A DNA stretch of 32,000 nucleotides from Burkholderiales bacterium (GCA_965194335.1 OZ239141.1:1756948-1788947), one strand, 5' to 3'; positions 15,545-21,517 are shown, counted from the stretch's first letter. Program-made: numbers and translations. Notes: generated by a model not told the origin, from the letters alone.

Positions 15545-15589
15545 TGGTGGGCCGTGCTGGACTCGAACCAGCGACCAAAGGATTATGAG
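15545..15589 (-). pseudogene. 3' fragment (anticodon loop to CCA) of the split host tRNA(CAU) gene; att junction
   Basis: The minus strand reads CTCATAATCCTTTGGTCGCTGGTTCGAGTCCAGCACGGCCCACCA. It has a T-arm GCTGG/TTCGAGT/CCAGC, and the acceptor 3' strand ACGGCCC is exactly complementary to GGGCCGT at 21511-21517. Confidence 0.85.
15580..15589. repeat. att core copy (left), GGATTATGAG
   Basis: Identical to 21476-21485. It corresponds to anticodon loop CTCATAA plus three stem bases on the minus strand. Confidence 0.85.
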
Positions 15590-15651
15590 AAAAAACACTC
15601 AAAAAACCTTCAATGTTTACGCCGCTTAGCAAGCAGTTGTCTGCGGTGTGT

Positions 15652-15666
15652 AAGTAAGTGTGTAAG
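15652..15666 (+). repeat. 15-bp repeat AAGTAAGTGTGTAAG (candidate integrase arm-type site, left arm)
   Basis: Perfect second copy at 21141-21155. It contains two GTGTGTAAG units (15646-15654 and 15658-15666). Confidence 0.5.
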
Positions 15667-15729
15667 CAAAGCAACCTTATAACACTTACTTCAGTTTATT
15701 TCGTTGCTTGTTTCGCTTCCCACAAACAC

Positions 15730-15758
15730 TTACCACACGTAAAATCAATACCTATACA
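15730..15758 (+). promoter_or_regulatory. candidate sigma70 promoter for the methyltransferase gene (TTACCA-N17-TATACA)
   Basis: Hexamers with 17-nt spacing lie about 20 nt upstream of ATG 15780. Sequence inspection only. Confidence 0.3.
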
Positions 15759-15779
15759 TTAGCACAAAAGAGAACAGCA

Positions 15780-15866
15780 ATGACAAATACAGAGAGAGAG
15801 AGAGAGAGAGAGAGAGAGAGAGAGAGAGAGAGAGAGAGAGAGAGAGAGAGAGAGAGAGAGCAATAA
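15780..15866 (+). other. ATG-initiated 28-codon leader through the AG tract (MTNT(ER)n..Q*), currently out of frame with the methyltransferase ORF
   Basis: ATG 15780 has purine-rich AAAGAGAA 6-13 nt upstream. The frame runs through (AG)35 and stops at TAA 15864-15866. The +1 frame is open from 15784 into the 15913-16689 ORF. Confidence 0.6.
15791..15860 (+). repeat. perfect dinucleotide microsatellite (AG)35
   Basis: Counted directly: seven blocks of agagagagag, 70 bp in total. Confidence 0.98.
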
Positions 15867-15912
15867 TCGCGCCAAACGTAGCTTTTCAGCGCGAAACATT
15901 GTTAAACAACTC

Positions 15913-16689
15913 TTGCCGCCTATTGCTATAACTATCTTAAAAAGGGTTTTGGCAAAACAAGATTTAGGATTTGTAAACTATCCAAGTTGGGAGCAAGCTG
16001 AGCAAGCAAGTGAAGGCTATGACTCTGATAGCGTAATAGAGAAAGTAAGGAAAGCAGCAAAACTTGTATTTGACGGAGAAGCTGTGTATGAAAGAGATTC
16101 TGTAGTTTTTGACGAAATAGATTACTCATATCCTCTGTTGGCATCACTTCTTTTTGCGGCAGCAAACTCTGAAACTCTAAAAGTTATAGATTTTGGAGGC
16201 GGACTTGGAACAACTTATCAACAGAATCGCAGATTTCTTTCAAAGATAAACAGAACTTGCCAATGGCGTGTAGTGGAACAAGAAAAGTTTGTTTCTATTG
16301 GAAAACGTGAATTCACAAATGAAACACTCAGTTTTTACTCGACGATTGAAGAAGCATACAAAGATGGGGTTGATGTTGTTCTTTTTGGCGGCTCCATTTG
16401 CTACGTTTCAAATCCATATATTTTTATGGGGAAAGCAAAAGCAACACGAGCACCATACATAATCTTCGACAGAACACCAACAACAAACCTAAAGGAAGAT
16501 ACATTCGCTGTTCAGAACGTTCCTCCTTCCATTTACAAAGCTTCCTTTCCCATTCGAAACTTTAGCTACAACAACATCACTATGTATTTCAAAGATGAAT
16601 ATGATTTGATAGAAGAATGGGTGTGCGACTTACAAGCAGACCCCAATACATCAGCTATGGGTTTTATTTTTAAACGCAAATCAGACTAA
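15913..16689 (+). CDS. class I SAM-dependent methyltransferase (resembles the TIGR04325 / LIC12133-type polysaccharide-locus family); probable phase-variable gene, real start likely ATG 15780 in the ON frame
   Basis: Has SAM motif I VIDFGGGLG, and GFVNYPSWEQAEQASEGYDSD...YERDSVVF matches my memory of TIGR04325 N-termini. The track start is a TTG with no SD. The ORF has no ATG until residue ~225, and the frame is open 129 nt further upstream. Confidence 0.7.
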   Translation: MPPIAITILKRVLAKQDLGFVNYPSWEQAEQASEGYDSDSVIEKVRKAAKLVFDGEAVYERDSVVFDEIDYSYPLLASLLFAAANSETLKVIDFGGGLGTTYQQNRRFLSKINRTCQWRVVEQEKFVSIGKREFTNETLSFYSTIEEAYKDGVDVVLFGGSICYVSNPYIFMGKAKATRAPYIIFDRTPTTNLKEDTFAVQNVPPSIYKASFPIRNFSYNNITMYFKDEYDLIEEWVCDLQADPNTSAMGFIFKRKSD

Positions 16690-19744: not shown

Positions 19745-21103
19745 TTAGCTTGTGCGCTTGTCAGTTTTCTTTTTTGCCACACGCTTGCTAACGTATGCGT
19801 CGTCAATCACTCCACCTGCTTCAATCAGCCTGCGTGTTTCTTCTCCGCGTAGTTGTTCAATAGCTTGTATGACTTTCAAATGGCTGTAGTGTTTTTCAAT
19901 CATTAAAACGCTTGTGCCCATTTGCTTTGCCAACGTATGTATTGGCACTTTGTCGTGTGTCAGCACAAGCGTCGCATACGTGTGCCGCAAGCTATAAAAC
20001 ACACGCTTTTGTTCAGTCTTTGTGTCATACAACAAGCTGTGTTCTTCCAAAAAGCTTTCAAACATTTTTTGGAAACTTGTTGGTTTTTCTTTGTCGCGTG
20101 TTCTAAACACATAGTCATTGTTTTTTGGCACTATGAGTTGTTTGAATGGCTCAGTAATGTCGTCGTCAATCTCGTAGTTGCGCTTTGCTATGCGTTCCAA
20201 CGCTTTAACCGTTCGCAGCATAGCAACAATAGTGCGTGTGCCTGTTTTGCCACTTATCGTTAGTTCCAAACTTCTGTTTAAGTTTGACAGCGTTATCTCT
20301 TCGTGTCCGTCGTCTGTGTTGTCAATCACACCTGTTTTTATTGTGATTGGTTTCATTACAAACTTTATTTGCTTCCACTTTAAGTTCAGCAACTCGTCGC
20401 CTGGCCTTGCGCCTGTATCGAGTAATACGTCAACGTAGTCGCGCAGCAGCGTTCGCATTTCTTTACTCTTTGCGTTTCGCGCTCTTTCAATCCATTCGTC
20501 AAAGCTGCCAACTAACGCACGTATTTCAGTCATATCAAAAGCAGGCCGCCTATCACTTGCTTTTCCTTTAGCTTCAAGTTTTGGCCGATTTGCGTCTGTT
20601 AAAAAGTTGCGTATAACTGCTTCGTCAAACACTCTGTTTAGCGCAGCGTTGTGTGTCAGCATAGTGCTTTGACTTGGCGCTTTTCCCATTTGTTCAATGC
20701 GCTTAGCGTCCAACTCGTCTAACGCTGTGTAGTCAATATTTGTAATGCTGCGTTTGCCCAACGCAGTTATCAAATATTCTTCAATCACACGTATGTAGTC
20801 TGCGTATGACACTTTGCCATTGCCGCTTCGTATTTCGTGCTCCATACGTTCAATAGCAAGTTTGGCAACGTCTCTAAACTTGCGAGTGATTACAGGCAAG
20901 TTTGAACGCTTACGTATTTCAGCTTCAATACGCAACTCGTTTGCTTTTGTCTTTGCTTTTTTTAAGTCGTGTTCTTTTGTTGACGCTCGTTGCCAAATGC
21001 CGTCAACCTTAAAACGACATTGCCAAATGTTGCTGCGTTCACGTCTGTAAACAATCAACTCTCTGTCTAAAAGCGTGTGCGTTGTTTCATTCTTTTCAGC
21101 CAT
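19745..21103 (-). CDS. int: tyrosine integrase (full-length, with N-terminal arm-binding-type domain)
   Basis: 452 aa. The N-terminus LIVYRRERSNIWQCRFKVDGIWQRASTK looks like a beta-sheet arm-binding domain. The catalytic motifs are TGARPGDEL (Arg I), LRHTYAT (HxxR) and HYSH (Tyr). It lies ~100 bp downstream of the element tRNA. Confidence 0.9.
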   Translation of the reverse strand: MAEKNETTHTLLDRELIVYRRERSNIWQCRFKVDGIWQRASTKEHDLKKAKTKANELRIEAEIRKRSNLPVITRKFRDVAKLAIERMEHEIRSGNGKVSYADYIRVIEEYLITALGKRSITNIDYTALDELDAKRIEQMGKAPSQSTMLTHNAALNRVFDEAVIRNFLTDANRPKLEAKGKASDRRPAFDMTEIRALVGSFDEWIERARNAKSKEMRTLLRDYVDVLLDTGARPGDELLNLKWKQIKFVMKPITIKTGVIDNTDDGHEEITLSNLNRSLELTISGKTGTRTIVAMLRTVKALERIAKRNYEIDDDITEPFKQLIVPKNNDYVFRTRDKEKPTSFQKMFESFLEEHSLLYDTKTEQKRVFYSLRHTYATLVLTHDKVPIHTLAKQMGTSVLMIEKHYSHLKVIQAIEQLRGEETRRLIEAGGVIDDAYVSKRVAKKKTDKRTS

Positions 21104-21140
21104 AGCAACACTTTAATGTCAGCAAGTTAAAAGAGCAACG

Positions 21141-21155
21141 AAGTAAGTGTGTAAG
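21141..21155 (+). repeat. 15-bp repeat AAGTAAGTGTGTAAG (candidate arm-type site, right arm)
   Basis: Perfect copy of 15652-15666. Further GTGTGT(A/G)AG units lie at 21381-21389 and 21392-21400. Confidence 0.5.
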
Positions 21156-21163
21156 TGATAAAC

Positions 21164-21194
21164 AAAAAAAATAAGACTGCCATTACAGCAGTCT
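21164..21194 (-). terminator. rho-independent terminator of the element-borne tRNA
   Basis: The minus strand reads AGACTGC-TGTAATG-GCAGTCT followed by TATTTTTTTT, 12 nt after the tRNA CCA end. Confidence 0.75.
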
Positions 21195-21205
21195 CATTTA
21201 AGTTT

Positions 21206-21282
21206 TGGTGGGCCCAGCTGGACTTGAACCAGCGGCCAATCGATTATGAGTCGACTGCTCTAACCAACTGAGCTATGGGCCC
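21206..21282 (-). tRNA. complete 77-nt tRNA with CAU anticodon, Ile2 (lysidine) type by similarity; element-encoded
   Basis: GGGCCCATAGCTCAGTTGGTTAGAGCAGTCGACTCATAATCGATTGGCCGCTGGTTCAAGTCCAGCTGGGCCCACCA folds as a cloverleaf. The acceptor stem is GGGCCCA/TGGGCCC, the D stem GCTC/GAGC, the anticodon stem GTCGA/TCGAT and the T stem GCTGG/CCAGC. The anticodon arm through the T arm closely matches E. coli ileX as I remember it. Confidence 0.85.
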
Positions 21283-21475
21283 TATAACTTTTACAACTTA
21301 TTTTTTCACAACTTAGTGCTTAGTTGCTGACTATACATAGTGTAGAAACAGCGAAAAAAGCACTAAAAACAACGTCCAAAGTGTGTGAGCAGTGTGTAAG
21401 CAAAATACAGCACCAAAAACACGCTACAAGCCGCTATTTTATTGGGTTTCTGCCCTATAGCTTACCAGAGTGATT

Positions 21476-21517
21476 GGATTATGAGTCCTCTGCTCTAACC
21501 AACTGAGCTAACGGCCC
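21476..21517 (-). pseudogene. 5' half (acceptor to anticodon loop) of the split host tRNA(CAU) gene; att junction
   Basis: The minus strand reads GGGCCGTTAGCTCAGTTGGTTAGAGCAGAGGACTCATAATCC and then runs into non-tRNA island DNA (AATCACTCTGG...). It pairs with the 15545-15589 fragment. Confidence 0.85.

Follow-up and report, generated by a model that had tools for sequence, protein, structure and literature searches.

An integrative element of a Burkholderiales bacterium that splits the host tRNA(CAU) gene and carries a complete tRNA(CAU) gene of its own

We analysed a stretch of 32,000 nucleotides (nt) from a Burkholderiales bacterium (GCA_965194335.1 OZ239141.1:1756948-1788947; hereafter the window), our reading of this genome covering these 32 kb, and found that an integrative element of about 5.9 kb lies in the anticodon loop of a host transfer RNA (tRNA) gene with the anticodon CAU, leaves this gene in two halves, and brings along an intact tRNA(CAU) gene. 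We consider it highly probable that this represents non-restoring integration into tRNA-Ile2, with a replacement tRNA supplied by the element. In the mechanism we propose, the element would have entered the anticodon loop of tRNA-Ile2(CAU) downstream of rpoD by site-specific recombination through its tyrosine integrase; with only a 10-bp core in common, neither junction would rebuild the gene, and the orphan halves would be left 5.9 kb apart. The element's complete tRNA-Ile2 with its terminator would take over AUA decoding during the integrated state, and precise excision would restore the host gene. tRNA-Ile2(CAU) is usually single-copy and is needed to read AUA. An essential function of the host would be bound to a mobile element that destroys this gene and returns its own copy.

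The halves of the host gene and the two copies of the common core can be read directly in the window (Table 1). The core, GGATTATGAG, is 10 bp long and present at both junctions; on the tRNA strand it reads CTCATAATCC and consists of the 7-nt anticodon loop and 3 nt of the stem. Past the core, the host 5' half continues as AATCACTCTGG..., which is non-tRNA DNA. The outer halves pair with each other in the acceptor stem (GGGCCGT/ACGGCCC), while the stem of the inner tRNA differs (GGGCCCA/TGGGCCC), and when 21486-21517 is joined to 15545-15589 by deleting 15590-21485 in silico, a 77-nt cloverleaf tRNA(CAU) is obtained. Neither ARAGORN nor Rfam detected a tRNA at either junction, the sole intact tRNA of the window being the inner one. 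The classical direct repeat, running from the crossover to the tRNA 3' end, is absent; the repeat is 10 bp, and the target is not regenerated. Since attP and the target share only this core, neither junction rebuilds the gene. All coordinates and strings of the original prediction, which had been made from this sequence, were found in the window; its claim that the host tRNA(CAU) gene is split in the anticodon loop agrees with both the excision tRNA and the empty site described below, and its claim that the target is not repaired at the junction is borne out by the short core and the non-tRNA DNA beyond the 5' half.

The uninterrupted site exists in the same species. Our search for it was anchored on the flanking redoxin protein, which 21 contigs encode exactly; among the ten of them that were listed, each with a 100% identical redoxin, eight (L081-L085, L087, L089, L090) have an intact 77-nt gene in the rpoD-redoxin interval, in the same gene order rpoD-tRNA-redoxin. 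The tRNA rebuilt in silico is identical to this gene, and one of these contigs (L081) can be aligned with the excised window as a single ungapped block of 20,556 bp with 99.66% identity; hence, the boundaries proposed in the original prediction are exact, and the comparison with insertion-free relatives suggested there returned an intact attB, not a split gene, in all eight. The same occupied site, 100% identical, is seen in L088, a contig that ends within the (GA)n microsatellite of the element, whereas L086, of the same species, has a different family member with DUF411 cargo inserted at the same CTCATAATCC (L086:1-1800). With empty, occupied and L086 sites in one species, the insertion is thus polymorphic within the species. 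In L086, the redoxin gene is also separated from the orphan 3' part by an insertion sequence (rve transposase).

The empty site bears directly on two other explanations of the halves. In an ordinary restoring island, the rebuilt target would be the tRNA beside the integrase gene (int), and an older or tandem insertion would have left the outer halves as debris; the tRNA does have the position seen in classical islands and in restoring relatives such as L020, some 100 bp upstream of int, and tandem arrays do occur in the family (L043, L169). However, the outer halves pair together and not with the inner tRNA, the empty site consists of exactly the joined outer halves and nothing else, and the inner tRNA with its 190-bp spacer moves with the element into other hosts and is also found behind attP-type junctions. 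We therefore regard this explanation, contradicted by the empty site, as very improbable. Even less credible is a functional split, permuted or intron-containing tRNA whose halves would be joined at the RNA level. Split tRNA genes are known in some archaea, and relatives do have element tRNAs with a group I intron in the anticodon loop, but the 5.9 kb between the halves hold protein genes on both strands and a terminator, the complementarity flanking the halves amounts to just 5 nt (GAGTG/CACTC), and Rfam gave no group I intron match in the window, whose element tRNA is intronless. In view of the coding interval, the lack of an intron and the uninterrupted gene in the same species, we reject this explanation.

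The same arrangement recurs in other hosts. The element family is found mostly in betaproteobacterial (Burkholderiales) genomes and metagenome-assembled genomes (MAGs), with many relatives in freshwater Burkholderiales; our survey covered 80 related loci, scanned for tRNA halves and partners, and further loci such as L093 and L094. Near-identical elements (integrase 91-99% identical) split other tRNA(CAU) genes in L001, L093 and L094, and they share a conserved int-proximal arm, tRNA and int with the more distant relatives L016, L029, L003, L004 and L021 (integrase 62-78% identical). The core of the window element also bounds the elements in L016, L029, L093 and L094 and marks the int-proximal junction in L003 and L004. 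In-silico excision regenerates a tRNA(CAU) in the eight loci with both ends visible, and for seven hosts we scored the acceptor stem made up by the two halves, which lie 5.7-9.5 kb from each other: pairing is 100%, against 39-55% in slid controls, and at three pairs both bases have changed. By these sequences, we assign the inner tRNA to the element and the outer halves to the host.

Some members depart from this arrangement in detail. The L001 element, with an integrase 99% identical, is without 33 nt beside the core on the int side (L001:9649-9670 vs window 21475-21441), so that its common core comprises only the 7-nt loop CTCATAA. In L005 (9100-9225), on a contig binned as Nitrospira, the int-proximal end is joined via CTCATAATCC to GC-rich non-tRNA DNA, which may be a secondary attachment site. 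Members in L135, L141, L146, L151, L154 and L177 occupy another kind of tRNA(CAU), with the 3' part CTCATAATCCGTTGGTGCC...GGGGGGCCCACCA or a close variant. An exact look-up of the window integrase returned one 1.8-kb contig, without context.

The attP of the element had been reconstructed in the original prediction as GAGTGTTTTTT-CTCATAATCC-AATCACTC with GAGTG/CACTC arms, and a real junction of that type, GAGTG-TCTGCT-CTCATAATCC-AAT-CACTC, was found in L002, the core lying within it. In L002 and L169 the attP-type junction is followed by the proximal arm and the tRNA, and in L107, L108 and L109 a junction of this kind is present together with the proximal arm. A relaxed attP pattern matched 86 metagenome stretches, 10 of them in the family (four attP-type junctions and six attR in another tRNA(CAU)); in the viral collection there were three matches to the attP pattern, none passing the family filter. 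We considered these junctions as proof of free circles and rejected this, as the L169 junction is followed by a second small recombinase after the tRNA, a gene order implying that attP-type junctions may also join tandem elements. No terminal overlaps proving circular contigs were found in L002, L036, L094 or L169. The attP-type junctions may be free circles or tandem-copy joints; either way, they are products of recombination at this core. A distant search of a plasmid collection with the whole element gave, among the listed matches, only matches to the 77-nt tRNA and no related plasmid. Signs of tandem or composite elements were noted in L169, with two copies of the small recombinase (2269-2895 and 4553-5179) around the attP-type junction, and in L043 (2433-8924), where three tRNA 5' halves follow one another and another integrase, 33% identical, is present.

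The element tRNA lies about 190 bp inside the int-proximal junction, directly followed by a terminator-like hairpin, as expected of the independent full-length paralog with its own terminator that the original prediction described. Throughout the family it is co-oriented with the orphan 5' half. Among seven distinct element tRNAs, taken from ten elements, the stems are 100% paired, with compensatory changes of both bases at eight pairs, and 500 shuffles gave no score as high; this pattern indicates that the element tRNA is under selection and that its cloverleaf is kept through compensatory changes. For both the host and the element copy the best match in E. coli is tRNA-Ile(CAU), at 88.3% and 89.6% identity, respectively; these best matches are annotated as tRNA-Ile (ileY), and the CAT anticodon is visible in the sequence. 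The gene neighbourhood is also the same in both species, with tsaD-rpsU-dnaG-rpoD-mug-ileX in E. coli K-12 and TsaD-S21-YqeY-DnaG-RpoD-tRNA in the species of the window, which corroborates the ileX locus named in the original prediction. The two tRNAs thus fit a common isotype, Ile2 rather than Met, the identity proposed at the outset.

That the element tRNA makes up for the broken gene we argue mainly, and indirectly, from its co-occurrence with non-restoring integration. We counted 28 non-restoring members, all of which have an orphan 5' half on the side of int as well as their own tRNA-Ile2; the latter is intronless in nine (the window element, L001, L003, L004, L016, L021, L029, L093, L094) and has a 205-250-nt insert in the anticodon loop in 19 (L010-L014, L019, L025, L030, L033, L034, L037, L038, L040-L044, L061, L066). 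In the restoring tRNA(CAU) relatives L006, L020 and L076, whose integrases are 71%, 63% and 43% identical to that of the window, the target tRNA is intact, and no second tRNA or fragment of that kind was found in the available DNA of the three, for two of which (L006, L020) the int-proximal sequence was read. Restoring relatives in tRNA-Lys have just the target tRNA and a displaced fragment. In L070 (Methylophilaceae), where the target is tRNA-Lys(UUU), a 113-bp direct repeat spans the promoter and the 5' half (9754-9866 and 17477-17589), the orphan 5' half is beside int and the intact tRNA is at the far end, the gene being repaired via a supplied 5' part. One integrase family thereby displays three solutions at the same kind of site: supplying the 3' part, supplying the promoter and the 5' part (L070), or supplying a whole new gene.

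The element tRNA might instead serve mainly the element itself, by decoding AUA or by countering a tRNA-targeting defence, in a host with another copy of the gene. AUA makes up 43% of the Ile codons (24.7 per 1000 codons) in six open reading frames of the element (15913-21103), against 6% (3.5 per 1000) in 23 host open reading frames of the window, so that the element's own expression also leans on its tRNA; counter-defence, moreover, has been raised as a possible selective force in the discussion of a comparable phage system (PMC10865867). On the other hand, all 28 non-restoring members carry the exact isotype that they destroy, the restoring tRNA(CAU) relatives checked (integrases 43-71% identical) carry none, and the element's own benefit is compatible with compensation. 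We find it unlikely that own benefit is the main role; it would be the main alternative if the host has another tRNA-Ile2 copy.

Returning to compensation, in which the cell would need the element tRNA, several points weigh against it. ARAGORN names both tRNAs Met, from the anticodon alone, and a simple scan revealed no sigma-70-like promoter upstream of the element tRNA. Moreover, the window element's own attP (TTGAGTG-N6-CTCATAATCCAATCACTC; AATCACTC arm) had 0 matches in metagenome contigs. Finally, any other tRNA-Ile2 copy in the genome would make the element tRNA dispensable for viability. As to the promoter, the element tRNA has a fixed orientation and follows the orphan 5' half at a distance of 190 bp, so that the host tRNA promoter could serve it by transcription running through that half; we offer this as speculation. 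The element tRNA would presumably be expressed, lysidinylated by TilS and charged.

A further feature of the element tRNAs concerns the core itself. In 27 of the 28 non-restoring members, the element tRNA-Ile2 is without the full 10-bp core CTCATAATCC that is present in every target, which suggests immunity to the element's own integrase. Some anticodon stems are recoded (TCG or TTC for TCC; GTCGA, GGCGA and GAGAA vs GAGGA in hosts) with compensatory changes, and in other members the loop is interrupted by a group I intron at one of two insertion points, after CTCATA or after CT (the latter in L038, L045, L061 and L073). Rfam RF00028 matched all three loci tested, L025 with 65.4 bits (cut-off 50), L013 with 48.4 and L011 with 45.4. 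It is conceivable that the replacement tRNA is built to escape the element's own integrase, a suggestion that we make tentatively from these sequence patterns. L021 contradicts such immunity in its own case: its element tRNA and the reconstructed host target have the same sequence, including an unusual D arm, GCAC/GTGC (9603-9909, 18665-18709), which suggests capture or gene conversion. In L013 a C-U mismatch in the T stem (GCGGG/CCCTC) of the orphan 3' part (18970-19014), found beside an intact element tRNA, may mark the onset of decay in an unused host gene. If the immunity reading is true, mobile elements would retain bacterial group I introns of the Azoarcus tRNA-Ile kind for the protection that these give from site-specific integration, and the family would allow the idea that interrupted tRNA genes guard against integrating elements to be tested in bacteria. 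Moreover, with decay of the orphan host halves the family would become locked in, a process that may already have started in the L013 3' part.

The remaining genes of the element identify it further. The GC content (guanine plus cytosine) is 0.40-0.45 inside 15600-21500 and about 0.52 in the flanks, and this drop, the integrase and the polymorphic insertion uphold the description as an integrative element in the original prediction. We found 1801 homologues of the 452-amino-acid (aa) integrase, and in the 29 sequences used for scoring conservation R233, K286, R373, H374, H405 and Y406 are invariant. The second, small recombinase is kept in the related elements L093, L094 and L169. The 163-aa and 183-aa proteins matched no family in Pfam, PHROG or NCBIfam. 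In 35 homologues of the 183-aa protein H103, H105, K157 and E158 are invariant and Y154 nearly so; its structural model has a predicted local distance difference test score (pLDDT) of 87, and the Foldseek matches are weak (best E 0.012 with a template modelling (TM) score of 0.38; Rep/TnpA matches E 0.012-0.1, TM 0.35-0.38), the most probable being adeno-associated virus (AAV) Rep, a REP-associated tyrosine transposase and parvovirus NS1, followed lower down by IS608 TnpA and pMV158 RepB. Possibly, this protein is a HUH rolling-circle initiator, which we note as a lead only. In PHROGs, the element matched integrase families and a single family of unknown function; the integrase itself also had one weak match to a head protein (E 0.004), and no convincing phage structural, packaging or lysis genes were found.

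Both ends of the element contain CTTACACAC repeats. This motif has four exact matches in the window, all inside the element ends, and 15 at one mismatch vs 4.2 expected. Repeat pairs at equal distances from the core are kept in relatives, the position of the int-distal pair being conserved in the window element, L001, L002, L013, L016, L021 and L029; on this pattern, the repeats are candidate arm-type integrase binding sites. The (GA)n microsatellite upstream of the methyltransferase gene, replaced by (GT)n in L001, may act as a phase-variation switch for this cargo gene. Outside the element, RpoD is 902 aa long, its first ~290 residues forming a Lys/Ala/Pro-rich low-complexity extension before region 1.1 (window 23430-24301, minus strand).

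Table 1. Features of the window and of related loci (window positions counted from its first nucleotide)
Feature	Position	Strand	Basis or detail
Integrative element, ~5.9 kb, low GC, AUA-rich	15590-21475	-	GC drop; absent from same-species empty-site contigs
Orphan 5' half of host tRNA-Ile2(CAU), acceptor stem to anticodon loop, attL side	21476-21517	-	Sequence read directly: GGGCCGTTAGCTCAGTTGGTTAGAGCAGAGGACTCATAATCC
Orphan 3' part of host tRNA-Ile2(CAU), anticodon loop to CCA, attR side	15545-15589	-	Sequence read directly: CTCATAATCCTTTGGTCGCTGGTTCGAGTCCAGCACGGCCCACCA
Common core copy, int-distal junction	15580-15589	.	Read directly
Common core copy, int-proximal junction	21476-21485	.	Read directly
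Complete element tRNA-Ile2(CAU), acceptor GGGCCCA/TGGGCCC, anticodon stem GTCGA/TCGAT	21206-21282	-	ARAGORN; Rfam 75.1 bits
Terminator-like hairpin and T run directly after element tRNA	21169-21199	-	14-pair stem, then TTTTTGTTT
Tyrosine integrase, 452 aa	19745-21103	-	Pfam PF00589, 36.2 bits vs cut-off 27.1
Second small tyrosine recombinase, catalytic domain only	16681-17304	-	Pfam PF00589, 94.2 bits
Cargo methyltransferase, TIGR04325 family	15913-16689	+	NCBIfam TIGR04325, 186.7 bits vs cut-off 80
Possible HUH-type rolling-circle initiator, 183 aa	17953-18504	-	Motif conservation, weak fold matches
DUF6641 protein	18574-19113	+	Pfam PF20346, 52.2 bits
163-aa protein	19193-19684	+	Position kept in L093, L094
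Pair of CTTACACAC repeats, int-distal arm	15646-15666	-	Exact copies at 15646 and 15658
Pair of C(T/C)TACACAC repeats, int-proximal arm	21381-21400	-	Exact CTTACACAC at 21392, one-mismatch partner at 21381
Single CTTACACAC repeat between element tRNA and int	21147-21155	-	Exact match
(GA)n microsatellite, ~38 units, between promoter-like site (15717-15745) and methyltransferase gene	15790-15866	+	Sequence
Host rpoD, flank upstream of target tRNA	21593-24301	-	Pfam sigma-70 regions 1.1 to 4
Host redoxin/AhpC-TSA gene, flank downstream of target tRNA	14933-15487	-	Pfam
Related element, Hydrogenophaga MAG, after hrcA	L001		Host acceptor stem GGGGCGT
Related element	L093		Host acceptor stem GGGCCTA
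Related element, 6,113-bp contig, both junctions present	L094		Host acceptor stem GGGACGT
Related element, isolate Polynucleobacter sp. MWH-Loch1C5 (NZ_JACVPR010000001)	L016		Host acceptor stem GGGCCCT
Related element, other locus than window	L029		Host acceptor stem GGGCCGT
Intron-bearing element tRNAs	L013:9619-9899, L011:9611-9899, L025:1113-1400, L033:8247-8540, ~15 further loci		Hosts Limnohabitans (for L011, Limnohabitans sp. Jir61), Rhodoferax, Polynucleobacter

We found no paper describing this element family. The introns of the relatives recall the group I intron of Azoarcus tRNA-Ile(CAU), a likeness that we draw from the Rfam matches: the 205-250-nt introns lie in the anticodon loop of the element tRNA, and their conserved core presumably resembles the Azoarcus tRNA-Ile ribozyme, unlike the window's own element tRNA, which has no intron. 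Our literature search found no paper linking the Azoarcus tRNA-Ile intron, tRNA-Ile group I introns or Polynucleobacter elements to integrases; the family connects tRNA-Ile group I introns with mobile elements in a way that can be tested. It also gives annotators a concrete reason for "extra" tRNA(CAU) genes and orphan halves beside betaproteobacterial integrases.

Among known systems, the classical restoring islands with a crossover in the anticodon loop (Islander, PMC4383910) are alike in having int beside the tRNA and a displaced 3' fragment at the far end. However, such islands supply the missing part of the gene (PMC4383910), whereas the identity block of the window element is 10 bp and the target stays broken. 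Closer is the Lj965 prophage of Lactobacillus johnsonii, for which, as cited in PMC10865867, the junction tRNA is reportedly not rebuilt and a cognate tRNA is carried; compared through this citation, it is alike in both respects but is a prophage of a Firmicute.

The closest parallel is tRNA-dependent lysogeny, described for Fionnbharth and other cluster K4 and L actinobacteriophages (Guerrero-Bustamante and Hatfull, mBio 2024, PMC10865867). The mycobacteriophage Fionnbharth enters tRNA-Lys(UUU) through a 10-bp core without rebuilding the target and needs its own tRNA-Lys, a requirement shown by genetics, while a relative whose integrase is 78% identical has a 43-bp core and restores the gene (PMC10865867). 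The original prediction had called the arrangement in the window unusual; it is indeed rare, but it has a parallel, and given this experimental precedent it is not categorically new. The two systems are alike in their tyrosine integrase, an attB in a tRNA gene, an attP and attB that share about 10 bp, the failure to rebuild a functional tRNA, and paired arm-type sites flanking the attP core; in both, close relatives with a longer core restore the tRNA (Boilgate vs Fionnbharth; L006 and L020 vs the window element). At the sequence level, the window element thus shows the hallmarks of tRNA-dependent lysogeny, with an integrase at a tRNA attB, a ~10-bp core and a tRNA whose isotype is the same. 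They differ in that Fionnbharth is a phage of an actinobacterium with tRNA-Lys(UUU) as its target, whereas the window element has 5.9 kb, no detected phage genes and a possible HUH replication protein, and resides in a betaproteobacterium in tRNA-Ile2(CAU), which needs modification by TilS. Its tRNA is part of the attP-int module, unlike in the Fionnbharth system, and the requirement for the tRNA, established genetically in Fionnbharth, is inferred here from sequence. Hence, the element resembles the phage system in its working but is neither a prophage nor a temperate phage. What is new about the arrangement is its setting: Proteobacteria, a small element without detected phage genes, and tRNA-Ile2. 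It would extend tRNA-dependent integration, for which actinobacteriophages provide the only experimental demonstration, to Proteobacteria and to an element of very small size.

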